Below are positions 3,983 to 33,865 of a stretch of DNA of 36,485 bases, one piece after another. Positions within the stretch are counted from its first letter, which is position 1, and every line of letters starts with the position of its first letter. The notes under the pieces are model-generated. The model was not told where the DNA came from. It was given only the letters and a program-made list of their open reading frames with translations, and did no database searches. Origin of the DNA: a virus (Duplodnaviria; Heunggongvirae; Uroviricota; Caudoviricetes); IMG/VR virus record IMGVR_UViG_2541047779_000001; one strand, given 5' to 3'. Position numbers and translations under genes: made by a program.

Positions 3983-4836
3983 GCACCATCCTGAAATGGG
4001 CGGGAAATAAAACCGCCATTATGTCCAAACTGAAAAAACACCTTCCTGCTGGCCCGCGACTGGTTGAACCTTTCGCGGGTTCCTGTGCAGTGATGATGGA
4101 GACGGATTACCCCAGCTATCTTGTTGCGGATATTAATCCTGATTTAATCAACCTCTATAAAAAGGTTGCTGCTGATTGTGAGGCGTTTATATCTCGTGCC
4201 AGAGCTTTATTTGAGGAAGCAAACAGGGAGGTGACTTATTACAACATAAGGCAGGAGTTTAATTACTCCACTGAAATTACTGATTTTATGAAAGCGGTAT
4301 ATTTTCTGTATCTCAATCGTCATGGTTACCGTGGGTTATGTCGCTATAACAAGAGCGGGTATTTCAACATTCCCTACGGTAATTATAAAAATCCGTATTT
4401 CCCTGAAAAAGAAATTCGCGCATTTGCAGAGAAAGCCCAGCGGGCAACGTTTATCTGCGCCAGCTTTGATGAAACGCTGGCGATGTTGAAGGTGGGGGAT
4501 GTGGTGTATTGCGATCCGCCTTATGACGGTACGTTTTCCTGCTATCACACTGATGGCTTCACTGAAGATGACCAGTATCACCTGGCATCTGTTCTTGAAC
4601 ATCGATCATCTGAAGGTCATCCGGTCATTGTTTCTAACAGTGACACATCCCTGATTCGTTCGCTGTATCGCAATTTCACTCACCACTACATCAAGGCAAA
4701 ACGCAGCATCGGCGTGTCGGCTGGCGAGAGTAAATCTGCAACAGAAATCATTGCTGTTTCCGGGGCGCGCTGCTGGGTGGGATTTGATCCTTCGCGTGGC
4801 GTGGATAGTTCTGCCATGTACGGAGTGCGTGCATGA
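3979..4836 (+). CDS. DNA N6-adenine methyltransferase (Dam-like)
   Basis: DPPY catalytic motif (VYCDPPYDG) and Dam-like N-terminus [11 protein letters not shown]...[18 protein letters not shown] before ATG at 3979; stop overlaps A start (ATGA). Confidence 0.85.
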
Positions 4837-7247
4837 GCCATGATGATATGAACAACTGCAGCGGCTTTAACGAGGTCGCCGCAGCATTCTCATGGAACAG
4901 CCCGAAAAAGGCCATTAACCCTTATCTGGACCTGGCGGAAGTTGCGCCGGTTTCTGCGCTTTCAAACCTGATCACTCTGTACGCTGTCGATAATGAGCAG
5001 GAACAACTGCGTCGCGAGGCACTAAGTGATCAGGTCTGGGAGCGTTATTTCTTTAATGAATCCCGTGATCCTGTCCAACGCGAAATGGAGCAGGATAAGC
5101 TCATTAGCCGGGCAAAGCTGGCGCATGAGCAGCAGCGTTTTAATCCAGATATGGTCATTCTGGCGGACGTCAATGCCCAGCCTTCCCATATCAGCAAGCC
5201 GCTGATGCAACGTATCGAATACTTCAGCAGCCTGGGCAGGCCAAAGGCTTATTCCCGCTATTTGCGTGAGACGATTAAGCCATGTCTGGAACGACTGGAG
5301 CATGTACGCGACTGTCAGCTATCCACTTCTTTTCGCTTTATGGCAAGCCATGAAGGGCTGGACGGCCTGCTGATCCTGCCTGAAATGAGTCAGGATCAGG
5401 TGAAACGCTTGTCTACTCTTGTCGCTGCGCATATGAGCATGTGTCTTGATGCAGCTTGTGGCGATTTGTATGCCACCGATGACGTTAAGCCAGAAGAAAT
5501 CCGCAAGACATGGGAAAGGGTGGCGGCGGAAACCCTGCGTCTGGATGTCATTCCTCCTGCGTTTGAGCAACTCCGCCGGAAAAGAAACCGCCGTAAACCC
5601 GTGCCCTATGAACTCATTCCGGGTTCGCTGGCGCGTATGTTGTGCGCCGACTGGTGGTATCGGAAATTATGGAAGATGCGTTGCGAATGGCGGGAAGAGC
5701 AGTTGCGCGCTGTCTGCCTGGTTAGCAAAAAAGCATCTCCTTATGTCAGCTATGAAGCCGTGATGCATAAACGTGAGCAGCGCCGTAAGTCGCTGGAGTT
5801 TTTTCGTTCTCATGAACTGGTGAACGAAGACGGCGACACGCTGGACATGGAGGATGTGGTAAACGCCAGCAGCAGCAACCCTGCGCATCGCCGCAATGAG
5901 ATGATGGCCTGTGTTAAAGGCCTGGAGCTTATCGCGGAAATGCGCGGTGACTGCGCCGTTTTCTACACCATCACCTGTCCGTCACGTTTCCATTCCACGC
6001 TAAATAACGGCAGGCCCAACCCGACCTGGACAAATGCGACGGTAAGACAAAGCAGTGATTATCTGGTCGGCATGTTTGCTGCATTTCGTAAGGCGATGCA
6101 CAAAGCCGGATTGCGCTGGTATGGCGTGCGGGTGGCTGAGCCGCATCATGACGGTACAGTTCACTGGCACCTGTTGTGTTTTATGCGCAAAAAAGATCGC
6201 CGCGCCATTACTGCTTTATTGCGTAAGTTTGCCATTCGTGAAGACCGCGAGGAGCTGGGGAATAACACGGGACCACGATTTAAGTCTGAGTTGATTAACC
6301 CGCGCAAAGGAACGCCGACAAGCTACATCGCGAAATATATCAGCAAGAACATTGACGGGCGTGGTCTGGCTGGCGAGATCAGCAAGGAAACGGGTAAATC
6401 TCTGCGTGATAACGCTGAATACGTGAATGCCTGGGCGTCTTTGCATCGTGTTCAGCAATTCCGCTTCTTTGGCATTCCGGGGCGTCAGGCTTACCGTGAA
6501 CTGCGATTGCTGGCTGGTCAGGCGGCAAGGCAACAGGGGGACAAAAAAGCAGGTGCGCCGGTACTGGATAACCCGCGCCTTGATGCAATCCTAGCTGCTG
6601 CTGATGCTGGTTGTTTTGCCACTTACATCATGAAGCAGGGCGGCGTACTGGTTCCCCGCAAATATCACCTCATCAGAACTGCTTATGAAATTAACGAAGA
6701 GCCGACCGCCTATGGCGATCACGGCATTCGTATTTATGGCATCTGGTCACCCATTGCAGAGGGCAAGATCTGCACTCATGCGGTGAAGTGGAAAATGGTT
6801 CGTAAGGCCGTTGACGTTCAGGAGGCGGCAGCCGACCAGGGCGCTTGCGCCCCTTGGACTCGTGGCAATAACTGTCCCCTTGCGGAAAATTTGAACCAAC
6901 AGGAGAAAGATAAATCAGCTGATGGGGACACCAGAACGGACATTACCCGCATGGATGACAAGGAGTTGCACGATTACCTGCACAGTATGAGCAAAAAAGA
7001 GCGCCGGGAACTGGCAGCAAGGTTACGCCTGGTTAAGCCGAAACGGCGTAAAGACTACAAACAGCGAATTACAGATCATCAGCGACAGCAGCTCGTCTAT
7101 GAACTGAAGTCCAGAGGATTTGATGGCAGCGAGAAAGAGGTCGATTTACTCCTTCGCGGTGGCAGTATTCCGTCAGGAGCAGGCCTGCGTATCTTCTATC
7201 GGAACCAGCGTTTGCGGGAAGATGATAAGTGGCGGAATCTGTATTAA
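4833..7247 (+). CDS. A: Replication initiation endonuclease (P2 gpA family)
   Basis: 804-aa protein in the position and with the size of the P2/186 replication protein; contains the HWH-type motif [10 protein letters not shown]. Confidence 0.85.
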
Positions 7248-7832: not shown

Positions 7833-7966
7833 GAAACGTTGCTGGCGTCTGAACTTGTTTCTGGCGTCAGCAAGGTTGAACAACGAGCCCTTGCGAGGCG
7901 TTAGCTCTGTAGTGCATGTCTATGCCGCATGAGATCGCATGATCGTTTGAGGATCGTTTTTGCTAA

Positions 7967-7991
7967 GGCCCGCCAGAACTGGCGGGCTTTT
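7967..7991 (+). terminator. Rho-independent terminator after the SOS operon
   Basis: Stem gcccgcc / ggcgggc with a 6-nt loop, followed by tttt. Confidence 0.55.
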
Positions 7992-8036
7992 GCGTAGATC
8001 ATGCAGGTGCATGAAAACCACTACATAAAGCGGGCA

Positions 8037-8055
8037 GGCGTGGCGGGGATACGAG
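8037..8055. other. cos-like cohesive end sequence
   Basis: GGCGTGGCGGGGATACGAG resembles the P2/186 19-nt cohesive ends as I recall them (GGCGAGGCGGGGAAAGCAC / GGCGTGGCGGGGAAAGCAT). Confidence 0.45.
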
Positions 8056-8246
8056 CGCGCGCTGAAAAGGTTTAGCTAAATTTTTGTCGATAGGTGGTTT
8101 TAGTTGTTATACAAAAGTGTCACTGGTTTTGTTTTGAGCATTTGTGGTGCTAAAAATATTTTTTTTGGTTCAAAATTACCTTAAAAAGGTTTTTTTGGTG
8201 TATGATTGTTTGAAAAGTGGTTCGGTTTTGCCATAAGGGTGGTTAG

Positions 8247-9329
8247 ATGATAAACGTTACAAACGAAATGCTCATTGATGTTGTCAGTGATGCTCTTACC
8301 GGGAAGAGGGAAAGTCTCCTCATGCGGTTGCGGATTATGGCAAAAAAACTAAAAAAAGAATCTCCTGAATTAGCGGGTAAATTAGAAGATTTACTTATTA
8401 ATACGGGTGGCGCAATTGCAGTCGAAAGGGCTAATCCAGTTGTTCCTAAAATAACACCTGTTGATGCGGATACAAGACAAAAGCTGCTAGTTGAAACATA
8501 TCCTGTGGTCATTGATGTTGAACCTGTTTGGCCAACAAAAACTGATGTTCAACTGAATCGATTTGTGGCTGAGTGGGAAATGAAAGAACGCCTTTATAAA
8601 GAAGGGTTGCATCCCTCCAAATCTCTTCTTATGGGAGGACCACCCGGTGTGGGGAAGACTTTGGCTGCAAAGTGGCTCGCTTTTAAACTCGATATGCCAT
8701 TGTTAACATTAGATCTCGCAAGTGTAATGAGTAGCTACTTGGGGAAAACGGGTAATAATATTAAGGCAGTCCTCAATTATGCTTCGTCATTCCCTTGTGT
8801 ACTGCTTCTTGACGAATTTGATGCGATTGCTAAAAAAAGGGATGATGCAACAGATGTTGGAGAACTAAAAAGATTAGTTACAGTATTATTGCAAGCAATT
8901 GATGAATGGCCAAATACGTCTGTTCTTATAGCAGCAACTAACCATGCGGAGCTGCTTGATCCTGCTGCATGGAGAAGATTCGATCGAGTTATTGATTTTG
9001 AATATCCAACACAAGACCTAATGAGAAGATATCTCTGTTCTAAAAATATTGGAGATAGCTTATCGTACTATATTGCTACAAAACTCGAAAAAGTTTCATA
9101 TGCAGTTCTTGAGAGAGCTATAAATCAAGCTAAAAGAAATGCCATTATAGAAGATATTCCTTTAAGTTCAGCTTTAATTGATGAGTTGTTAGATGGCGTG
9201 TCACTTGATGATGTTATAAAAAACATGTCAAACAACAATGTATCACAAAGAAAAATCGCTTTAGATTTGGGGATTTCAAGGTCACAAGTACGTAAGGTTT
9301 TGACGGTTGAGGATGAAGACAATGAATGA
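8247..9329 (+). CDS. AAA+ ATPase with C-terminal HTH (IetA-like)
   Basis: Walker A GPPGVGKT, Walker B VLLLDEFD, C-terminal HTH-like tail (QRKIALDLGISRSQVRKVL). AT-rich gene with GGGTGG RBS. Confidence 0.85.
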   Translation: MINVTNEMLIDVVSDALTGKRESLLMRLRIMAKKLKKESPELAGKLEDLLINTGGAIAVERANPVVPKITPVDADTRQKLLVETYPVVIDVEPVWPTKTDVQLNRFVAEWEMKERLYKEGLHPSKSLLMGGPPGVGKTLAAKWLAFKLDMPLLTLDLASVMSSYLGKTGNNIKAVLNYASSFPCVLLLDEFDAIAKKRDDATDVGELKRLVTVLLQAIDEWPNTSVLIAATNHAELLDPAAWRRFDRVIDFEYPTQDLMRRYLCSKNIGDSLSYYIATKLEKVSYAVLERAINQAKRNAIIEDIPLSSALIDELLDGVSLDDVIKNMSNNNVSQRKIALDLGISRSQVRKVLTVEDEDNE

Positions 9330-11514
9330 TAAAAATATGCTTCTTGGCTATGGTGAAACACTAACTAACCCTGTTAAACTTAACAGAGGTGGAGGTGAAA
9401 AGAATAAACCTTACTCTTATTCAGAAAATAAACCAGTGATATCTGCTCAACTGGAAGAGTTGATTGAGGAAATTAATACCCTTCCATTGTTAGCAATGCC
9501 TGAAGGTAAGGCTGTAGCAAAATTTGTTTTGCATCCGGCATTCTTAGCAAAAAGTTATTTTCCAGTAAGTCTTTTTGAGCGATTTTCCCTAGAAAGCATA
9601 GGCAGTAAGGCTGTAAAAGTAAAACCTAGAAAAGATATTAAAAAAAGAGGGCGAAAAGAGGAATACACTACAGCGTGTATTTATGTTTCTGGCAAAAAAG
9701 AAAGTTTTCAATCATTCTTAGACTCTGTAAATCAAGATACCCTAACGAAAGGGCAGCAAAATGATTTTGTCACCTTAGAAAATATTTCAATACTGGAAGT
9801 TTCAGATAAAGTAAAAACGATTAATAGCAATGAAGTTATGAGTATTGAGGTCGCCTTACATACTCCTGATACAAGTTCCTCTATTGTCGATAGTTTTGAA
9901 GTTTTTGCTTCGCAAAATGGTGCTGTTATAGATAAGGCAAGAAGTATAAAAGTTAAGGGGCTAACCTTTATGCCTATTAAGGCTAGTAAAGATGTAGCTT
10001 TAAAAGTTGCAGAGTTTTCATTTCTCAGGACTTTGAGAGAACTTCCTGAATTAAGGCTAAGTGAGCCTGTTATATCACGTTCTGTGATTCAAACATCTAA
10101 CCTTAGTTTACCATCTGAAGGAGCGGTAAACCCACACATAAAGGTTGCCATATTCGATGGTGGATTGGGGATCGATGATTTCAATCCTTGGGTAACAGAG
10201 TACACTTTCAACGGTAATGCTAGTACTAATGCAAAACTTCTTTCTCATGGACAGGATGTCACCTCTACTGTGTTATTTGGTGTTCTTGGCTCTGAAACGG
10301 AAAAATTAAGTGTTCCTTATTGTAATATTGACCATTATCGTGTACTGGATTCCAATGTTAATAACTCAGATGTCGATCTTTTTGACGTTCTGATCCGTAT
10401 TAAAAGTGTATTAGAACAAAAAAAATATGATTATATCAATCTGAGCTTAGGACCTAGATTACCTGTTGATGACGATGACGTGCATGTGTGGACCTCAACT
10501 CTTGAGGAGATACTTGCATCAGGAGAAACACTTTGTACTGTCGCGGTTGGAAATGATGGTCAGCTGCCTGCCAAGTTAAATCGAATTCAACCACCTGCTG
10601 ATTTAGTTAATGGTCTGTCAGTAGGTGCAGCAACCTCTTTATCTGATAGTTGGGAAAGATGTTCTTACAGTTGTATTGGTCCTGGACGAAGCCCTGGCTT
10701 TGTGAAGCCTGATGGAGTTGCATTTGGAGGACATTCTGATGAGCCATTCCAGGTATACAGCCCTATGGTTAATGGTCTTGCCCGCACTGCGGGGACTAGC
10801 TTTTCTGCTCCATTAGTCCTGAGGCAAGCAATCGCGTTAAGTGCTTCTCTAAATTACAACATTACACCACTTACGGCTAAAGCTCTGCTTATACATCATG
10901 CGGAGAGCAATAATATCAATCGTGCTGAAGTTGGTTGGGGACGATTTCCTCATGATCTTAGTGAAGTAATATTTTGTGATGATGATGAAGTTAAAGTTAT
11001 ATATCAAGGTACTTTAAAACCATCACAACACATGCGAGCACCTGTTCCGTTTCCAGATGTACCTATGCGTGGATGTGTAAATTTAAGAGCGACATTCTGT
11101 TTTTCCAGTCCTGTAGATGCGGAACATCCTTTGAATTATACAAGAAGCGGTCTAGAAGTAACCATGAGAAAAGGTGTTTCAGATAGTTCCGGGTTAACGT
11201 TTCCTCTTTTTAATCTAAAAAATGTTTATGCAGATGAAAATGAGCAACGTGTTGATGCACATAAATGGGAGACTACGTTAAGAAGTGAACACAAATTTAA
11301 ACCGAATGAGCTGACAAACCCATGCTTTGATATTATCTACTATGGTAGAGACTGTGGTATGCCTATTGATGTTGACGAGTTAGAAGAACTACCATATGTT
11401 CTTGTTGTGACTTTATCTGCTGAAGAAATGCCGGATTTATATAACCTAATTAGGCAGAAATATCAAACCTTACAGCCTATCCAAGTTCAACAGCAAATTA
11501 TGTTACGTACTTAA
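9307..11514 (+). CDS. S8 subtilisin-like serine peptidase (IetS-like)
   Basis: Catalytic triad motifs in subtilase order: VAIFDGGLG (Asp), HGQDVTSTV (His), GTSFSAPLV (Ser). About 270 aa N-terminal region of unrecognised function. Start may be the ATG at 9322; overlaps the ATPase stop. Confidence 0.85.
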   Translation: MRMKTMNDKNMLLGYGETLTNPVKLNRGGGEKNKPYSYSENKPVISAQLEELIEEINTLPLLAMPEGKAVAKFVLHPAFLAKSYFPVSLFERFSLESIGSKAVKVKPRKDIKKRGRKEEYTTACIYVSGKKESFQSFLDSVNQDTLTKGQQNDFVTLENISILEVSDKVKTINSNEVMSIEVALHTPDTSSSIVDSFEVFASQNGAVIDKARSIKVKGLTFMPIKASKDVALKVAEFSFLRTLRELPELRLSEPVISRSVIQTSNLSLPSEGAVNPHIKVAIFDGGLGIDDFNPWVTEYTFNGNASTNAKLLSHGQDVTSTVLFGVLGSETEKLSVPYCNIDHYRVLDSNVNNSDVDLFDVLIRIKSVLEQKKYDYINLSLGPRLPVDDDDVHVWTSTLEEILASGETLCTVAVGNDGQLPAKLNRIQPPADLVNGLSVGAATSLSDSWERCSYSCIGPGRSPGFVKPDGVAFGGHSDEPFQVYSPMVNGLARTAGTSFSAPLVLRQAIALSASLNYNITPLTAKALLIHHAESNNINRAEVGWGRFPHDLSEVIFCDDDEVKVIYQGTLKPSQHMRAPVPFPDVPMRGCVNLRATFCFSSPVDAEHPLNYTRSGLEVTMRKGVSDSSGLTFPLFNLKNVYADENEQRVDAHKWETTLRSEHKFKPNELTNPCFDIIYYGRDCGMPIDVDELEELPYVLVVTLSAEEMPDLYNLIRQKYQTLQPIQVQQQIMLRT

Positions 11515-11520
11515 CAATGT

Positions 11521-11543
11521 GGAGGGGTTCCCCCTCCTTTATT
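11521..11543. terminator. Bidirectional hairpin terminator between the cargo island and Q
   Basis: Perfect stem ggagggg-ttc-cccctcc followed by tttatt. Confidence 0.6.
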
Positions 11544-11552
11544 AAGCTTTAT

Positions 11553-12602
11553 CTATGTTGATTGTGGGTCATCGTTTATTAAGTTATATTTTTCAAAATG
11601 GATAATATTAATTCCTAACCATTCATTAAATTCCTGTAATCGTTTTTGTAAAGGCATTAATTCATTTCGAACAAACACTCGACTCGCCTTCTCTACATCT
11701 CCAAATCCTCCAACATTACTTGGCATAATCCCCATCATTTGCGGCGGCACACGGTGTGCCGCCATCATGTCGTCCCGGCTCACGTTCTTGATATTCAGAA
11801 ACTCATCCTTCGCCGCGACTTCTGACAACGGGATGATCTGAAGCCCGTCCTTTTTGCCGTTAGGCGAGTACATAAACAGGTTGCGGAAGTTGCCAGGGCC
11901 TTTGGCGCTTTTCATCGCATTGCGGAGGTTGTTCACATCCTCCTGGTTCTGCGCGGCATCGGTCATGTACATGATGAAGCCTGCATGACTGCCGTTAATA
12001 TAATACTTCCGGCGGAACAGCGTGGCGGACTCGTTGAGCAGGGCTGACGGAATGGCAGAAAGATAACCTGGCAGGCCGTAGATCTCCTGGTTGATGTCAG
12101 GTTCCATCAGATGAAAAATGCTGCCTTTCGTGAACTGATACGGATGGGTTGTCATACCGTATTGCACAAACCAGTAGGTATCCAGGTCTAACCCGCGTCG
12201 GGTGTATTTTGCCAGCGCAGGCTCAAGGGCTATAACTTCACCGAATCGGTTCGTGCGTTTCTCCAGGTAGGCGTTACCAAATACCAGATAGTCCTGCACA
12301 AAACGCGAAAAAGCCTGTTGGCTGAGCAGCGGATGAGGGATATAGGTACTGGTCAGAATGTTGCACTTTACTGCAATCGGGGAACTGTGATGCACGGCAG
12401 CGCGGAAGGTGCGCGCCAGTCCGTCAAAGCTGACGGGTGGCTCATACCAACGGTCCATCTGAACGCATTCCACATAGTCCAGCAGTTCTCGGCGGTCCAG
12501 AACTGGAACGGGATCGCCGAAGCTGAATGCTTCGGCTGTAGTCTGGCTTTTATGCTGAATCTGGGTCGTCGCCGCAGCGCGCTTCTTCTTACTCTTTCCC
12601 AT
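11553..12602 (-). CDS. Q: Portal protein (P2 gpQ)
   Basis: 349-aa protein, first gene of the leftward Q-P operon, overlapping the P stop. Confidence 0.85.
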   Translation of the reverse strand: MGKSKKKRAAATTQIQHKSQTTAEAFSFGDPVPVLDRRELLDYVECVQMDRWYEPPVSFDGLARTFRAAVHHSSPIAVKCNILTSTYIPHPLLSQQAFSRFVQDYLVFGNAYLEKRTNRFGEVIALEPALAKYTRRGLDLDTYWFVQYGMTTHPYQFTKGSIFHLMEPDINQEIYGLPGYLSAIPSALLNESATLFRRKYYINGSHAGFIMYMTDAAQNQEDVNNLRNAMKSAKGPGNFRNLFMYSPNGKKDGLQIIPLSEVAAKDEFLNIKNVSRDDMMAAHRVPPQMMGIMPSNVGGFGDVEKASRVFVRNELMPLQKRLQEFNEWLGINIIHFEKYNLINDDPQST

Positions 12603-22216: not shown

Positions 22217-22814
22217 TCTGCTGCCACCGGGTTCAACACCACTGGAGCGCCGACTGGCGCAAACCTGCAGCGGGATTTCTGATCTGCAGGTGCCGCTGCG
22301 TGACTTGTGGAATCCGGCAACCTGTCCGGTCAGTTTCCTGCCTTATCTCGCCTGGGCGTTCTCTGTGGATCGCTGGGACGAGGGCTGGACAGAAAGCGTC
22401 AAGCGCCAGGTGGTGAAGGATGCTTTTTATATTCATCAGCATAAAGGGACCACCAGTGCCGTGCGGCGGGTGGTGGAGCCGTTCGGCTTTCTGATCCGCA
22501 TTATTGAGTGGTGGCAGACCGGAGAGGCACCGGGCACGTTTCGCCTGGATATCGGCGTGCAGGACCAGGGCATCACTGAAGATACCTATCTGGAACTTGA
22601 GCGACTGATAAGCGATGCCAAACCATGTAGCCGCCACATGATCGGCATGTCCATCAATCTGCAGACCAGCGGTCCATATTGGGTGGGGGCTGCAAGCTAT
22701 CTTGGCGAAGAAATCACGATCTATCCGTATATCAACGAAACAATTATTTCCGGCGGCACCGTGCATGAAGGCGGGGCGGTCCATGTTATTGACACAATGA
22801 GAGTGAATCCATGA
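22209..22814 (+). CDS. I: Baseplate/tail protein I
   Basis: Position and size; overlaps J stop. Confidence 0.8.
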   Translation: MNSLLPPGSTPLERRLAQTCSGISDLQVPLRDLWNPATCPVSFLPYLAWAFSVDRWDEGWTESVKRQVVKDAFYIHQHKGTTSAVRRVVEPFGFLIRIIEWWQTGEAPGTFRLDIGVQDQGITEDTYLELERLISDAKPCSRHMIGMSINLQTSGPYWVGAASYLGEEITIYPYINETIISGGTVHEGGAVHVIDTMRVNP

Positions 22815-24199
22815 GCACAAAATTTTATACCCTGCTGACGGATATTGGCGCGGCGAAACTTGCCAGCGCCGCCGCGCTCGGTGTGCCGTTAAAAATTACC
22901 CATATGGCGGTCGGCGATGGCGGCGGAACATTGCCAACGCCGGACGCAAAGCAGACTGCACTGGTAAATGAGAAACGCCGGGCTGCGCTGAATATGCTCT
23001 ATATCGACCCGCAGAACAGCAGCCAGATTATTGCCGAACAGGTGATCCCTGAAAACGAGGGTGGTTGGTGGATCCGTGAAGTGGGCCTGTTTGATGAGTC
23101 CGGGGCATTGATTGCCGTGGGCAACTGCCCGGAAAGCTATAAGCCGCAACTGGCTGAAGGCAGCGGGCGCACCCAGACCGTGCGCATGGTGCTGATAACC
23201 AGCAGCACGGACAATATCACCCTGAAAATAGACCCTGCTGTAGTGCTGGCAACCCGTAAATACGTGGATGATAAAGTCCTGGAATTAAAGCTGTATGTGG
23301 ATGACCAGATGAGAAACCACATTGCCGCACAAGATCCTCATACCCAGTATGCGCAGAAACATAATCCGACATTTACCGGAGAACCAAAAGCGCCGACGCC
23401 TGCAGCAGGAAATAACACCACTCGGATTGCGACCACAGAGTTTGTTCAGGCCGCTATTACTGCTCTAATTAACGGTGCGCCAGCCACGCTGGACACACTG
23501 AAAGAAATTGCTGCAGCCATTAACAATGACCCGAAATTCAGTACCACTATTAATAATGCGCTGGCACTGAAAGCGCCGCTGTCGAGTCCGGCACTTACCG
23601 GAACGCCAACAGCACCTACTGCGGCACAGTCGGTCAACAATACACAGATTGCCACTACGGCTTTTGTGAAATCGGCGATTGCAGGAATGGTGGGTTCTGC
23701 ACCTGCGGCACTGGATACATTGAACGAACTGGCGGCGGCGCTGGGGAATGACCCGAACTTTGCCACGACAATGCTTAATGCGCTAGCAGGTAAACAACCG
23801 CTGGACAATACGCTGACTAATTTGAGTGGAAAGGATGTAGCTGGTCTTCTCGCATACCTTGGTTTGGGAGAAGCCGCAAAACGAAACGTGGGAACACCGG
23901 AAAAGCAGACACCAGACACACCACCAAAAGCATCACGGAAAGGCAACCGAAAAACGCCAGATGCCGAAAAGGAACAAAAACGACCAAAGACTTACCCAAA
24001 GGAAAAAGGACCGGAATCCCCCAATGAGTCAATCCCCAGGCCAGATAAACAGACACCGGGCAATGCAACGAGACGCCAACGTGCAAGCCAGGCCGCAAAT
24101 ATCCGGGAACAGAACAACGAAAGCAATACAGGCACAAGAAACCAACGCAACGATAGACATGAAGATGCAGCCGGTTCAGCCAAAGGCGCGGAACAATGA
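22811..24199 (+). CDS. H: Tail fibre protein H; only the N-terminal/constant part (to about 23873) looks genuine
   Basis: N-terminus MSTKFYTLLTDIGAAKLA...MAVGDGGG and repeat region resemble P2 gpH. After ...AYLGLGE the frame runs into the A+C-rich segment and the C-terminal 108 codons are low complexity (K/P/T/Q/N-rich). Confidence 0.7.
   Translation: MSTKFYTLLTDIGAAKLASAAALGVPLKITHMAVGDGGGTLPTPDAKQTALVNEKRRAALNMLYIDPQNSSQIIAEQVIPENEGGWWIREVGLFDESGALIAVGNCPESYKPQLAEGSGRTQTVRMVLITSSTDNITLKIDPAVVLATRKYVDDKVLELKLYVDDQMRNHIAAQDPHTQYAQKHNPTFTGEPKAPTPAAGNNTTRIATTEFVQAAITALINGAPATLDTLKEIAAAINNDPKFSTTINNALALKAPLSSPALTGTPTAPTAAQSVNNTQIATTAFVKSAIAGMVGSAPAALDTLNELAAALGNDPNFATTMLNALAGKQPLDNTLTNLSGKDVAGLLAYLGLGEAAKRNVGTPEKQTPDTPPKASRKGNRKTPDAEKEQKRPKTYPKEKGPESPNESIPRPDKQTPGNATRRQRASQAANIREQNNESNTGTRNQRNDRHEDAAGSAKGAEQ
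23859..23873. repeat. Left inverted repeat / putative invertase crossover site
   Basis: ttggtttgggagaag is the exact reverse complement of 25693..25707. Confidence 0.7.
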
Positions 24200-25692
24200 A
24201 ACATCGGCAAGGAAACAACATGGCATACCCGGAAGAACGGCAGTCGAACAACAAAGAAAAAGAAAAAAAGCCAGAAAAAAAAGCAGGTCAGATACACCAA
24301 CGAAGATGCAAGCAAGAGAAACATGACACACAACCACAAGGAAAAGACAGAAGAAATGGAAAAGACGAACTGCCGAAAAGACCAGAAAGCCCTAAACCAA
24401 CACGAAAACAACAAACAGAACCAGCAGAAACAAAAAAGCAAAAATAGATCAACAACAACAAAAAATATAGCAACAGGAGACAATAGCCCGGCAAAGCCCC
24501 GACTGGACGCACCAAAGACAAAGAAAGCGCGCAATACAATCTGTCGCTCGATAAACTGAAAGCAATGGAAATAGGCGACACACCAACGCCGCCAAATAGT
24601 CAATAGCACACAAACCCGACAGACCAAACAAAACAAAATCCCGCGCGATGACCCTAAAAATACAACCAACAGCGCCAAAGTAACGCAACACAACGAAAAG
24701 GAGGGTGAGAAATGGCTGAAGCAGACCCAGCCACACCAGAAAGCCCAAGTAAACCAGACAAAAGCAAACCATCACACAATCAATCAGACACCAACGCCGT
24801 CCATCAGCCGCACCCAACGCAAAGCAAAGCCCGGCCGCAAGATCAGGCACACAGAAAACACCAGACCAAACACCGTACGGAATTAAAGGGACGAGAGGAC
24901 GGCAACAGACACCAGAACCACCCCGAACGGCAACTGCCCTGAAATCCCCCAGGACGAGACCATACAAAACCTCACCCACAGGAACTAGCAAACAGCCCCA
25001 GGAAGTCAAAACAACACAGCCACAAATTACATAACCACAGTTACGCACACCTCAGACAACCAAAAACCAACATACCAACACACCGACGACGACACAGAGA
25101 AACGCAGGCCAGATAAAAAAATAGCCCCGCGTTACGCCAGCATAATGAAATACGATCATCACCCCATCATGGAAAAAGAAACCCCCATGCACCAAAACAA
25201 CCTGCTCCAACAAAGCAGCACTCACAATCTAGTGAAATGCAATAGAAAGAGGCCCACAAAAACACGCCCCCGAAATCAAAACATTTGTCCTAACCACACG
25301 CACACTGTCAAACATAAAGACACTCAAATCCGTAAACAAATACAAGAACCCGCAAGCACAAATACTCAACCACAACCAAAACACAGAGAAAAACGAACAA
25401 CAAACAACACCAGAAATGAAGGGAGCCACGAACCAGCCAGGCATCCAATGGGTAGCCCCAAACATAGACCCCCCCCCAAAACAAACAACCAACACAACGA
25501 AAACAACACCTCGCCCAGCAAACCAAACCCGAAAAAAAACACCGCCCAAAACAGGCAAGTGTAAACCAGGAAAACCAATTCCCACCCACGGGTAAACTGA
25601 ACCAGAAAAAAGTGCACCCCAGCATGAAACCCAGCCAGATGATGACATAGCAGAAAGCCAAGGAACACCCACACCAACAGGCAACGCTGACC
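23874..25692. other. Invertible segment with extreme strand-asymmetric A+C-rich composition and no credible genes
   Basis: On the plus strand T is nearly absent and G reduced; for example 25381..25440 contains a single T. ORFs on both strands are low complexity. Confidence 0.8.
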
Positions 25693-25707
25693 CTTCTCCC
25701 AAACCAA
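25693..25707. repeat. Right inverted repeat / putative invertase crossover site
   Basis: cttctcccaaaccaa is the reverse complement of 23859..23873. Surrounding sequence ttctcccAAACCaaCGTTTaagaaaa (25694..25719) resembles Hin/Gin/Cin crossover sites. Confidence 0.7.
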
Positions 25708-25768
25708 CGTTTAAGAAAATGCAGCGATTACGACTAACTGGCATCATCCCCGGTTTTTATTCAGGGGG

Positions 25769-26341
25769 ATGATCATGCTTATTGGCTATGTACGCGTGTC
25801 AACAAATGACCAGAACACCGATTTGCAACGTAATGCACTGAACTGCGCGGGATGTGAGCGGATTTTTGAGGATAAAATCAGTGGCACTAAGTCCGACAGA
25901 CCAGGGTTGAAAAAACTGCTCAGGACACTATCGGCAGGAGACACGCTGGTTGTCTGGAAGCTGGACAGGTTGGGGCGCAGTATGCGGCATCTTGTTACGC
26001 TGATAGAAGAGTTACGCCAGCGTGGTGTGAATTTCAGAAGCCTGACTGACAGTATTGATACCAGTACCCCAATGGGCCGTTTCTTTTTTCATGTCATGGG
26101 TGCCCTGGCTGAAATGGAACGCGAACTGATAGTTGAACGTACCAGGGCAGGGCTGGCTGCAGCTCGTGCCAAAGGCAGAGTAGGTGGACGCCGTCCTAAG
26201 TTGACCACCGAACAGTGGGCACAGATTGGGCGTTTACTCGAGGCCGGAGAATCAAGACAGCGTATTGCACTGATTTTTGATGTAGGCGTTTCTACCATTT
26301 ATAGAAAATTTCCGGCAAATAAGATCAATGAATCCCCCTGA
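25769..26341 (+). CDS. Serine recombinase, DNA invertase (Hin/Gin/Cin/Pin family)
   Basis: N-terminal catalytic region MLIGYVRVSTNDQNTDLQRNAL with the active-site Ser, resolvase-type core, C-terminal HTH (FDVGVSTIYRKF). Confidence 0.9.
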   Translation: MIMLIGYVRVSTNDQNTDLQRNALNCAGCERIFEDKISGTKSDRPGLKKLLRTLSAGDTLVVWKLDRLGRSMRHLVTLIEELRQRGVNFRSLTDSIDTSTPMGRFFFHVMGALAEMERELIVERTRAGLAAARAKGRVGGRRPKLTTEQWAQIGRLLEAGESRQRIALIFDVGVSTIYRKFPANKINESP

Positions 26342-33656: not shown

Positions 33657-33710
33657 TAAAAAACAGTGCTTCTAACATCATGATTTTAAAGAGCATAAAT
33701 TTCAGGCAAC

Positions 33711-33753
33711 AAAAAACCCATCAACCTTGAACCGAAATGGCGGGGTTGATGGG
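33711..33753 (-). terminator. Probable rho-independent terminator of ybjL
   Basis: Minus strand reads cccatcaacc - loop - ggttgatggg followed by ttttttgttg. Confidence 0.45.
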
Positions 33754-33865
33754 CTCCACAAAATGGGGACATCAAAGAAAAGCAGTGGCACTAATTAAGA
33801 CTGATGCCCTGCGGAAAAGTTCTGCGGTTGTACAAAAAAATTTCATTTTCAGGGCAACTTCAGTT

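Follow-up and report, generated by a model that had tools for sequence, protein, structure and literature searches.

In homologous ietAS systems the protease is the toxin and the ATPase the antitoxin, and protease activity is needed for defence; the molecular mechanism of IetAS was described as unknown in 2026 (PMC13069673). One such homologue acts by abortive infection set off by a phage protein (bioRxiv 10.1101/2022.08.27.505566). In E. coli, ietAS is often prophage-borne, and one study found that the ECOR52 ietAS alone gave limited protection only (bioRxiv 10.1101/2022.08.21.504612). The IetAS of Gao et al. (2020) needs both its ATPase and its protease motifs, and the ietAS that is common in E. 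coli P2 hotspots, listed as system 7 in Table S5B of Rousset et al. (2022), comprises 400 loci. The ietAS of the Agrobacterium Ti plasmid (ref. 61 in PMC13069673) is likewise a serine protease toxin with an AAA ATPase antitoxin and, where PMC13069673 cites it, is presented as a plasmid-stability function; it is likened to the present pair by description, not by sequence. A further system, ietHAS (Liu-DS4, NAR 2026, PMC13069673), has the IetA-IetS core in common with the present pair but requires a third, essential SNF2-type helicase gene.

We analysed a window of 36,485 nucleotides (IMG/VR record IMGVR_UViG_2541047779_000001), in which a first-pass annotation had read positions 8247..11514 as an Iet-family AAA+/S8 module. 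The PADLOC profiles, the intact motifs and the hotspot context all bear this out, and we consider it very probable that the two genes form an IetAS cassette, which a 186/P2-like E. coli prophage carries as accessory cargo in its A-Q hotspot close to cos.

The gene pair and its position beside cos

The cargo and its flanks comprise the following features.

4833..7247: replication gene A (ORF list)
7967..7991, + strand: rho-independent terminator closing the early/DinI-like operon and bounding the conserved cos block on the left; 9-bp GC stem GCCCGCCAG/CTGGCGGGC followed by TTTT
8037..8055, no strand assigned: cos site GGCGTGGCGGGGATACGAG, for packaging and cohesive ends in the P2/186-like prophage, from alignment to the P2 cos junction
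8063..8246, + strand: left end of the variable cargo, the AT-rich region upstream of ietA, presumed promoter/operator
8247..9329, + strand: ietA, 360 aa (ORF list)
9322..11514, + strand: ietS, cytoplasmic S8 subtilase of 730 aa, from the RefSeq start ATG 9322
11521..11537, + strand: terminator hairpin 3' of ietS, between the convergent ietS and Q; 7 pairs, 6 of them GC, then a T-run (terminator scan)
11553..11618, - strand: 3' end of portal gene Q, its last ~22 codons, within the variable AT-rich segment
11553..12602, - strand: portal gene Q (ORF list)

At its longest, the second ORF runs from a TTG (9307..11514, + strand, 735 aa), and the ATG at 9322 has a GAGGA Shine-Dalgarno sequence 8 nt upstream. 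Counted from this ATG, ietS overlaps ietA on the same strand by 8 nt, ATGAATGA; the two genes are a translationally coupled two-gene operon. The GC content is 0.34-0.44 over 8001-11500, compared with about 0.52-0.60 in the phage backbone, and the insert is AT-rich and foreign to that backbone in composition. It is bounded on the left by a terminator and the cos block, and on the right by a terminator and portal gene Q, whose 3' end lies 38 bp from the end of ietS. The region around the left terminator (7955-8000) folds at -25.1 kcal/mol (z = -4.98), and a simple terminator scan missed this site because just 4 T follow the stem, while the right hairpin folds at -13.5 kcal/mol on the + strand and -14.5 kcal/mol on the - strand. 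The ORFs, the GC profile and both hairpins thus agree with the earlier description of two overlapping, co-oriented genes in an AT-rich island between terminators. A sigma-70 scan of 8063..8246 returned no + strand promoter upstream of ietA, and a search of the upstream region for operator repeats gave a 9-nt direct repeat, AAAAGGTTT (8065 and 8184), and a weak small palindrome, neither of them convincing.

Searching with the P2 cos 19-mer at up to 3 mismatches found nothing, as the site differs from it at 5 positions. Alignment of 8005-8065 to the circularised P2 cosR/cosL junction gave 48 identities in 61 positions in the same orientation and placed cos at 8037..8055; the cargo therefore lies between cos and Q, as the first-pass annotation had it. 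Loci L001 and L004-L005 have an identical cos motif, and L006 has a version shorter by one base; the sequences diverge within about 10 nt to the right of the motif. Homology to other prophages breaks at 8062-8091 and, at the DNA level, resumes at 11619-11637. At this position, eight comparator E. coli prophages that share the cos block differ in their cargo or have none. The insert is accordingly one between A and Q that adjoins cos in a P2-like prophage, the setting that defines the A-Q hotspot.

The old and tin genes of P2 are likewise accessory anti-phage cargo of the cos-proximal A-Q interval, encoding unrelated proteins, but P2 has them on the A side of cos, whereas the present cargo lies on the Q side. 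The Q-side position had been called unusual, which holds relative to P2 itself alone: cargo sits on the Q side in 7 of the 8 comparators and includes retron Ec67, a DUF262 protein, a TIR protein and an Abi protein. The hotspot of 186-like prophages reaches into the Q side of cos and even replaces the final ~22 codons of Q.

Membership in the IetAS family

An AAA+ gene is followed by an adjacent, co-oriented S8 gene, and both products match IetAS profiles, IetS also outside its S8 domain. The profile searches that the first-pass annotation had proposed gave E-values far beyond chance for both proteins. IetA matches the PADLOC IetA model PDLC02196 at 6.7e-84 (280 bits; aa 7-355 of 360 against profile positions 5-371 of 374) and Pfam AAA at 5.4e-30, and IetS matches PDLC02197 at 2.7e-48 over residues 29-622 of the 735-aa ORF; with two further PADLOC IetS models, PDLC02199 and PDLC04233, the matched region reaches aa 722 and takes in the C-terminal domain. 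The sole specific NCBIfam matches are IteA (NF042959) and IteS (NF042956), at scores far below the equivalog cut-offs (247.7 versus 510 bits for IteA, 121.9 versus 900 for IteS). The accepted E. coli P2 ietAS also falls below these cut-offs, with 252.4 and 115.7 bits, and the shortfall therefore rules out the narrow equivalog alone and not the family. The IetAS of Gao et al. (2020) is collinear with the present pair over nearly the whole of IetA and most of IetS, and the ATPase and protease motifs it depends on are both present here, but with scores so far below the equivalog cut-offs the orthologous subgroup must differ. No SNF2-type helicase gene of the ietHAS kind lies between cos and Q.

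The system 7 ietAS (example L007) has the same gene order, the same sizes (360 and about 730 aa), the same A-Q hotspot location and the same architecture, an AAA+ protein with a C-terminal helix-turn-helix (HTH) and an S8 protein with a long N-terminal region. The two pairs score nearly alike on PADLOC and NCBIfam profiles and are collinear at 47% identity for IetA and 37% for IetS (first 400 aa). The first-pass annotation had raised the possibility of a divergent subtype; we rejected this reading, as the standard E. coli ietAS of P2 hotspots scores alike on all profiles tested. The prophages themselves belong to different sublineages, that of L007 having a 940-aa A protein, ParM/StbA and about 500 bp between ietS and Q, and the present one being 186-like with DinI; cos-like patterns did not locate cos in the L007 prophage.

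Table S5A of Rousset et al. (2022), a hotspot table, lists WP_001513123 and WP_001513122 as well as NZ_CP025849, which is match H7 of our searches. WP_001513123, the ATPase, is the RefSeq accession at locus H4, which is at least 99.6% identical. The present allele thus looks to have been in that table already, and the locus is an ordinary copy of a known IetAS system. Genes for an IetA of 357-360 aa followed by an IetS of 730-731 aa, overlapping or abutting, also occur in mobile elements of Yersinia, Serratia and Vibrio; the pair spreads among mobile elements as a cassette.

Architecture of IetA and IetS

The motifs of IetA map as follows.

8637..8660, + strand: Walker A GPPGVGKT, aa 131-138, codons verified
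8736..8744, + strand: pore-loop-1 Y164-L165-G166, aligned to W-V-G in the VAT D2 pore loop
8811..8816, + strand: Walker B D189-E190, invariant, codons verified
8940..8978, + strand: second region of homology (SRH) with sensor-1 N232 and arginine fingers R243/R244, invariant residues
9225..9302, + strand: C-terminal HTH, around aa 327-352, from sub-threshold Pfam matches and domains of homologues

The Walker A and B motifs claimed for the first gene are both present and invariant: across 27 homologues, G131, P133, G134, G136, K137 and T138 of Walker A do not vary, nor do A229, A230, T231, N232, H233, W242, R243, R244 and F245 of the SRH. The ATPase motif set (K137, D189/E190, N232 and R243/R244) is thus complete. 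The same homologues all share L165 and G166 of the pore loop and have Y, F or L at position 164. With both an SRH and a pore-loop-1 motif, the sequence places IetA among classical-clade AAA+ ATPases, the Cdc48/FtsH/PAN-like unfoldases. A sequence search of the PDB returned VAT/Cdc48/p97 as the closest relatives of IetA, and its kin across PDB and NCBIfam are VAT, Cdc48 and PAN; the same PDB search found generic AAA and subtilisin relatives and no solved IetA or IetS. The protein also carries a conserved N-domain motif, PVDxDTRQxLL. The C-terminal HTH noted earlier is upheld by 18 Pfam matches to the last 47 aa, all sub-threshold and all 18 to HTH families, and by precomputed HTH Pfam domains (HTH_23/HTH_50) in many homologues; Rousset et al. 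(2022) annotate the protein as AAA/HTH_50.

For IetS, residues are counted from ATG 9322.

9322..9414, + strand: conserved N-terminal peptide, aa 1-31; N5, G9, G11, E12, L14, K27, P30 and Y31 do not vary
9508..10041, + strand: tandem ferredoxin-like domains, aa 63-157 and 173-240, from predicted structure
10129..10965, + strand: S8 catalytic domain, aligning to subtilisin E
10156-10158, + strand: D279, codon verified
10246-10248, + strand: H309, codon verified
10552-10554, + strand: N411, the oxyanion Asn, codon verified
10798-10800, + strand: S493, codon verified
10978..11496, + strand: family-conserved C-terminal beta-rich domain, around aa 553-725, secondary structure mostly beta-strand

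The Asp/His/Ser triad seen at first reading is confirmed in canonical order as D279, H309 and S493, which are invariant, along with N411, in 40 homologues. Neither the N-terminal region (~270 aa) nor the C-terminal region of IetS has a Pfam match at E <= 10. The N-terminal region had been described as unrecognised; this holds for Pfam but not for the structure prediction that the first-pass annotation had proposed, which yielded two domains of ferredoxin-like fold, and the structures they match best are subtilase pro-domains. In the predicted model, at least one of these domains resembles the I9-like fold of subtilase pro-domains, a likeness that is new here. Compared with pro-subtilisins that have an I9-type pro-domain (pro-subtilisin E, ProN-Tk-SP and PCSK9), IetS gives no Pfam Inhibitor_I9 sequence match, has two such domains as predicted together with an extra conserved N-terminal peptide and helix, and is cytoplasmic whereas the pro-subtilisins are secreted. 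For aa 1-31 the pLDDT is 77-80 in the full-length model and drops to 42-54 in a model of the N-terminal region by itself, which suggests that this peptide packs against the catalytic or the C-terminal part of the protein.

In the C-terminal domain, T591, H602, Y606, T607, W649 and E650 are invariant among the 40 homologues. The IetS model aligns to KP-43 over 353 residues, and KP-43 likewise has a C-terminal beta domain. Our guess is that this domain recognises the substrate or the trigger.

Function, proposed mechanism and alternative explanations

By analogy with the literature on homologues, IetS would be the toxic effector of the present pair and IetA its ATP-dependent antitoxin, with abortive infection following upon a phage protein trigger. 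In the mechanism that we propose, IetS would be made latent, retaining the pro-domain-like module and the conserved N-terminal peptide in cis. An IetA hexamer, with its intact substrate-threading pore loop, its PVDxDTRQxLL N-domain motif and its C-terminal HTH, would engage IetS and silence the protease using ATP, and the HTH probably autoregulates the operon. A phage cue would block, titrate or redirect IetA, and IetS, once freed, would degrade essential host or phage proteins, stopping the infected cell before phage release. We infer the direction of this control, in which IetA silences rather than activates IetS.

The pro-domain-like N terminus of the modelled IetS and the intact pore loop of IetA together suggest a latent protease under unfoldase control. 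More specifically, and only tentatively, IetS may be a cytoplasmic subtilase zymogen in which the pro-domain-like module and the N-terminal peptide offer IetA a handle by which to silence the protease until a phage cue arrives or, alternatively, to unleash it. If true, IetAS would gain its first structural and mechanistic model, one that would apply to the whole family rather than to this locus in particular. The locus itself adds little, being one more P2-like prophage with a known defence cassette beside cos that PADLOC would flag. It does provide a compact natural allele, 47% and 37% identical to the commonly studied one, that is useful for comparing trigger specificity, and the predicted pro-domain-like IetS N terminus, the IetA pore loop and the invariant N-terminal motifs define concrete mutants for tests of mechanism.

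An alternative that we judge unlikely, though it merits weighing, is that the pair mainly stabilises the prophage by addiction (post-segregational killing), with defence secondary or absent. The first description of IetAS, according to the citation in PMC13069673, was of a toxin-antitoxin system that stabilises plasmids, and the IetA HTH resembles autoregulating antitoxins, yet homologous ietAS systems protect against phage and act as abortive infection systems with a defined phage trigger. Plasmid-partition genes are present in about a quarter of P2 hotspots, and maintenance functions therefore do occur there. Strain ChlosBP-23-1 also keeps the cassette within a truncated prophage remnant; however, of the roughly 1250 E. 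coli genomes that have this cos block only 11 carry it, pointing to rapid turnover and not to entrenchment. The two roles are, moreover, not exclusive.

We judge it very unlikely that the cassette is a decaying or silent passenger that has lost its function. The lack of a consensus promoter upstream, the rarity of the allele and the IS421 element that adjoins the cassette in two genomes would fit such a passenger, but ietA and ietS are annotated as intact in all 11 carriers and the IS is located outside both of them. No catalytic or family-invariant residue has been lost, and the gene overlap and the Shine-Dalgarno sequence are preserved. A role for the protease and ATPase in the phage life cycle, such as head maturation or host takeover, is hardly credible even though the pair adjoins the portal and terminase genes and certain phages encode capsid maturation proteases, since most sister prophages do without the pair and have unrelated genes or nothing there, the same pair occurs in non-P2 islands of Yersinia and Vibrio, the composition is foreign and the profile matches are specifically to Iet; on the same evidence we rejected a morphogenetic protease.

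Elsewhere in the window, the A/C-rich region at 23.9-25.7 kb agrees only partially with a rule by which each base is the alphabetically lower one of the forward and the inverted reference. A scan for the window's own inversion centre explained the region: at 23856..25710 the consensus is an artefact produced by an invertible tail-fibre segment.

An ietAS pair of the family already known from P2-like prophages

The prophage is 186-like, with the gene order CI, CII, Fil, Dam methylase, the replication endonuclease gene A, a 62-aa ORF and a DinI-like gene. Beyond these, an ATPase gene and a protease gene lie between A and the portal gene Q, in an interval delimited by the following features.

4833..7247: replication endonuclease A
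7967..7991: left hairpin (−25.1 kcal/mol, z = −4.98 by folding)
8037..8055: cos, GGCGTGGCGGGGATACGAG, located by alignment with the P2 cos junction
8247..9329 (+): ietA ORF, 360 aa
9307..11514 (+): ietS ORF, 735 aa from TTG
11521..11537: right hairpin with T-run, from a terminator scan
11553..11618: variable 3′ end of Q, AT-rich, last ~22 codons

At near-identical E. coli loci RefSeq starts ietS at ATG 9322, which has a GAGGA Shine-Dalgarno 8 nt upstream and gives a 730-aa protein; from this start ietS overlaps ietA by 8 nt (ATGAATGA). GC content over 8001-11500 is 0.34-0.44, compared with ~0.52-0.60 in the phage structural genes. The first-pass annotation, which described two overlapping co-oriented genes in an AT-rich island bounded by terminators, was therefore accurate in each respect.

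We compared both proteins with defence-system profiles, as that annotation had proposed for its assignment to the Iet family. IetA matched four PADLOC IetA profiles (best E-value 6.7e-84, aa 7-355 of 360) and IetS matched six IetS profiles (best 2.7e-48, aa 29-622), further profiles among them carrying the match to aa 722. Pfam found only AAA (IetA aa 127-253) and Peptidase_S8 (IetS aa 294-545) in the pair, and the sole specific NCBIfam matches were “anti-phage ATPase IteA” and “S8 family anti-phage peptidase IteS.” The pair thus belongs to the Iet family. The NCBIfam equivalog cut-offs were missed by far (IteA 248 versus 510 bits, IteS 122 versus 900 bits), which does not indicate unusual divergence, because the common ietAS of E. 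coli P2-like prophages (L007) reaches 252 and 116 bits with these models. PADLOC scores for IetA and IetS are likewise close (297 and 138 bits for L007, 280 and 163 bits here), and the earlier suggestion of a divergent subtype is not upheld.

The survey by Rousset et al. 2022 (PMC9122126) of the gpA-gpQ interval in E. coli P2-like prophages records “Peptidase_S8 | AAA” 400 times as its system 7, under the label “ietAS (Gao et al., 2020).” Our pair is collinear with system 7, at identities of 47% for IetA (full length) and 37% for IetS (first 400 aa), and the allele itself appears to be listed in Table S5A of that survey. The entries there include the genome NZ_CP025849, whose DNA is 99.7% identical to the segment, and WP_001513123, the accession that the ATPase bears at the equivalent locus of another matching genome. 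In view of the system 7 and Table S5A entries, the kind of module and its place are already catalogued, and apparently the allele too. Reading the locus as an ATPase-protease module in the P2 A-Q hotspot was correct, with both system and hotspot already known. Our literature search turned up no experiment on this allele.

Eleven complete E. coli genomes out of 5,426 carry the 3.7-kb segment in full (≥99.6% identity), adjoining a portal gene and with ietA and ietS annotated as intact in every one; the segment was absent from all phage records. Among sequenced phages the closest IetS is that of Enterobacter phage phiT5282H (40% identity), followed by a Pseudomonas Pf phage (39%). Homologues are many and strikingly uniform in length (IetS 723-742 aa, IetA ~355-375 aa), mainly from Proteobacteria, with matches also in Leptospira and Sulfurovum. 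The order ietA then ietS, with genes overlapping or abutting, recurs in unrelated mobile contexts, including an integrase/Prim-Pol island in Yersinia and an island in Vibrio cholerae.

Position beside cos

Window positions 8005-8065 align in the same orientation to the circularised P2 cos junction, placing the cargo on the Q side of cos. P2 itself has tin and old on the A side, with a cos-Q gap of only 167 bp. The first-pass annotation had called the Q-side position unusual; the position stands, but the adjective does not, as seven of eight comparator prophages have variable genes between cos and Q, including a TIR protein, a putative Abi protein, the retron Ec67 RT/endonuclease and a DUF262 protein. 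Four comparators carry genes on the A side as well, and one of the eight is empty. The cos block itself is found in ~1,250 complete E. coli genomes, and in three neighbours divergence begins no more than ~10 nt to the right of cos. Variable DNA spans ~8063-8091 to ~11618. At the DNA level the match to sister prophages does not pick up again until 11619-11637, and therefore the last ~22 codons of Q were exchanged along with the cargo.

A Serratia P2-like remnant (L010/L011 4606-9450) carries the same ietAS clade, with 69% DNA identity over the cassette. The cassette occupies the same cos-adjacent spot there, with a cos-like block (74% identity) immediately before it. Beyond it come an extra 300-aa gene, which had no Pfam match, then IS and integrase genes. 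In two of the E. coli genomes (L014 5189-6301, NZ_CP018995.1; and match H8), IS421 (IS4 family) sits between the ietS and Q stop codons, leaving both genes undisrupted.

Several minor features of these loci were also recorded. In L007, ~500 bp of non-coding DNA (9284-9789) separates ietS from Q, and no P2/186-type cos motif was found throughout that locus. The prophage of strain ChlosBP-23-1 (L001 15612-17062, NZ_CP048603.1) is a remnant in which a partial gpD directly follows the scaffold gene O, so most late genes have been deleted; ietAS, Q and P are kept intact. Here, as in ChlosBP-23-1, the prophage lies between rcdA and ybjL, and the RybB sRNA (33708..33786, minus strand; Rfam RF00110, 105 bits) is next to ybjL, just beyond the right end of the prophage. 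Upstream of ietA the DNA is rich in T-tracts and GGTTTT-like motifs, and a 9-nt direct repeat, AAAAGGTTT, occurs at 8065..8073 and 8184..8192, 119 bp apart; the repeat could be coincidental or could serve the HTH of IetA as an operator.

Anatomy of IetA and IetS and a putative latent-protease mechanism

IetA is a member of the classical AAA clade, its closest solved relatives being VAT, Cdc48 and p97. We assessed IetA invariance across 27 homologues; the IetS domains come from a model of the isolated N-terminal 275 aa (pLDDT 83.9).

IetA G131-x-P133-G134-x-G136-K137-T138: Walker A, invariant
IetA D189-E190: Walker B, invariant
IetA N232: sensor 1, invariant
IetA R243-R244: arginine fingers, invariant
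IetS aa 1-31: conserved peptide, N5, G9, G11, E12 and L14 invariant
IetS aa 33-52: long helix
IetS aa 63-157 and 173-240: two ferredoxin-like domains

The pore-loop-1 motif of IetA (Y/F/L-L-G), with L165-G166 invariant, aligns to W-V-G of VAT, and an N-domain motif, P71-V-D-x-D75-x-R77-x-x-L80 (PVDxDTRQxLL, 8457..8486, aa 71-80), has P71, D75, R77 and L80 invariant. The last 47 aa gave 18 Pfam matches, all sub-threshold and all to HTH families; HTH_23 or HTH_50 domains are present in many IetA homologues.

In IetS, all 40 homologues compared share D279, H309, N411 and S493, bearing out the Asp/His/Ser triad recognised at first pass. IetS is cytoplasmic, as its N-terminus has no signal-peptide-like hydrophobic stretch. 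Assignment of the ferredoxin-like domains as a pro-domain is only suggestive, because generic ferredoxin-like proteins match them with similar scores and Pfam I9 has no sequence match in the N-terminal region. Residues 1-20 reach pLDDT 77-80 in the full-length model versus 42-54 in the isolated one, which hints that the invariant peptide packs on the catalytic or C-terminal part. This peptide and the PVDxDTRQxLL motif of IetA are candidate interaction or pseudo-substrate elements.

In ietAS homologues the protease acts as toxin, with the ATPase as its antitoxin; defence depends on protease activity, ietA-dead constructs were not obtainable, and how the system works against phages “remains unknown” (PMC13069673). 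A Bacillus ietAS functions through abortive infection, set off when a phage protein of unknown function is expressed (bioRxiv 10.1101/2022.08.27.505566), and in E. coli ietAS is frequently prophage-borne (bioRxiv 10.1101/2022.08.21.504612). Taking the toxin and antitoxin roles from these homologues, and combining them with the anatomy, we consider the following three-step scheme most likely. IetS would be a latent cytoplasmic subtilase whose own N-terminal modules, together with IetA, restrain it. IetA would act as a hexameric, pore-loop-competent AAA+ spending ATP on IetS, and its HTH would probably autoregulate the operon. A phage cue would then disable or divert IetA, freeing IetS and halting the infected cell. 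The pro-domain and unfoldase logic is what we infer here; such a zymogen-plus-unfoldase model would apply to the whole ietAS family, beyond this locus.

An addiction-type role that stabilises the prophage is plausible as the main function and is compatible with defence. Decay of the cassette is unlikely given the conserved residues, and a morphogenetic role is also unlikely for a pair that is missing from sister prophages and also found outside P2-like phages.

A consensus artefact in the tail-fibre region

Positions 23856..25710 (1,855 bp), the expected place of the tail-fibre and tail-fibre-assembly genes, are nearly T-free, G-poor and A/C-rich. The flanks match tail-fibre/recombinase loci of other E. 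coli with length conserved and the centre unmatched. In 927 of 927 base pairs mirrored about 24783, base(i) ≤ complement(base(49566−i)) in alphabetical order, and the pair of mirrored letters accounts for 92.7% of bases in an inverted reference (other centres, 74.7±1.4%). From this we conclude that the stretch as written is a consensus artefact and does not represent biological sequence: it overlays the two orientations of a Cin/Gin-type invertible tail-fibre segment and keeps the lower letter. ORF 22811..24199 is garbled at its end, as are the tfa genes, and a recombinase ORF (25769..26341) adjoins the invertible segment.
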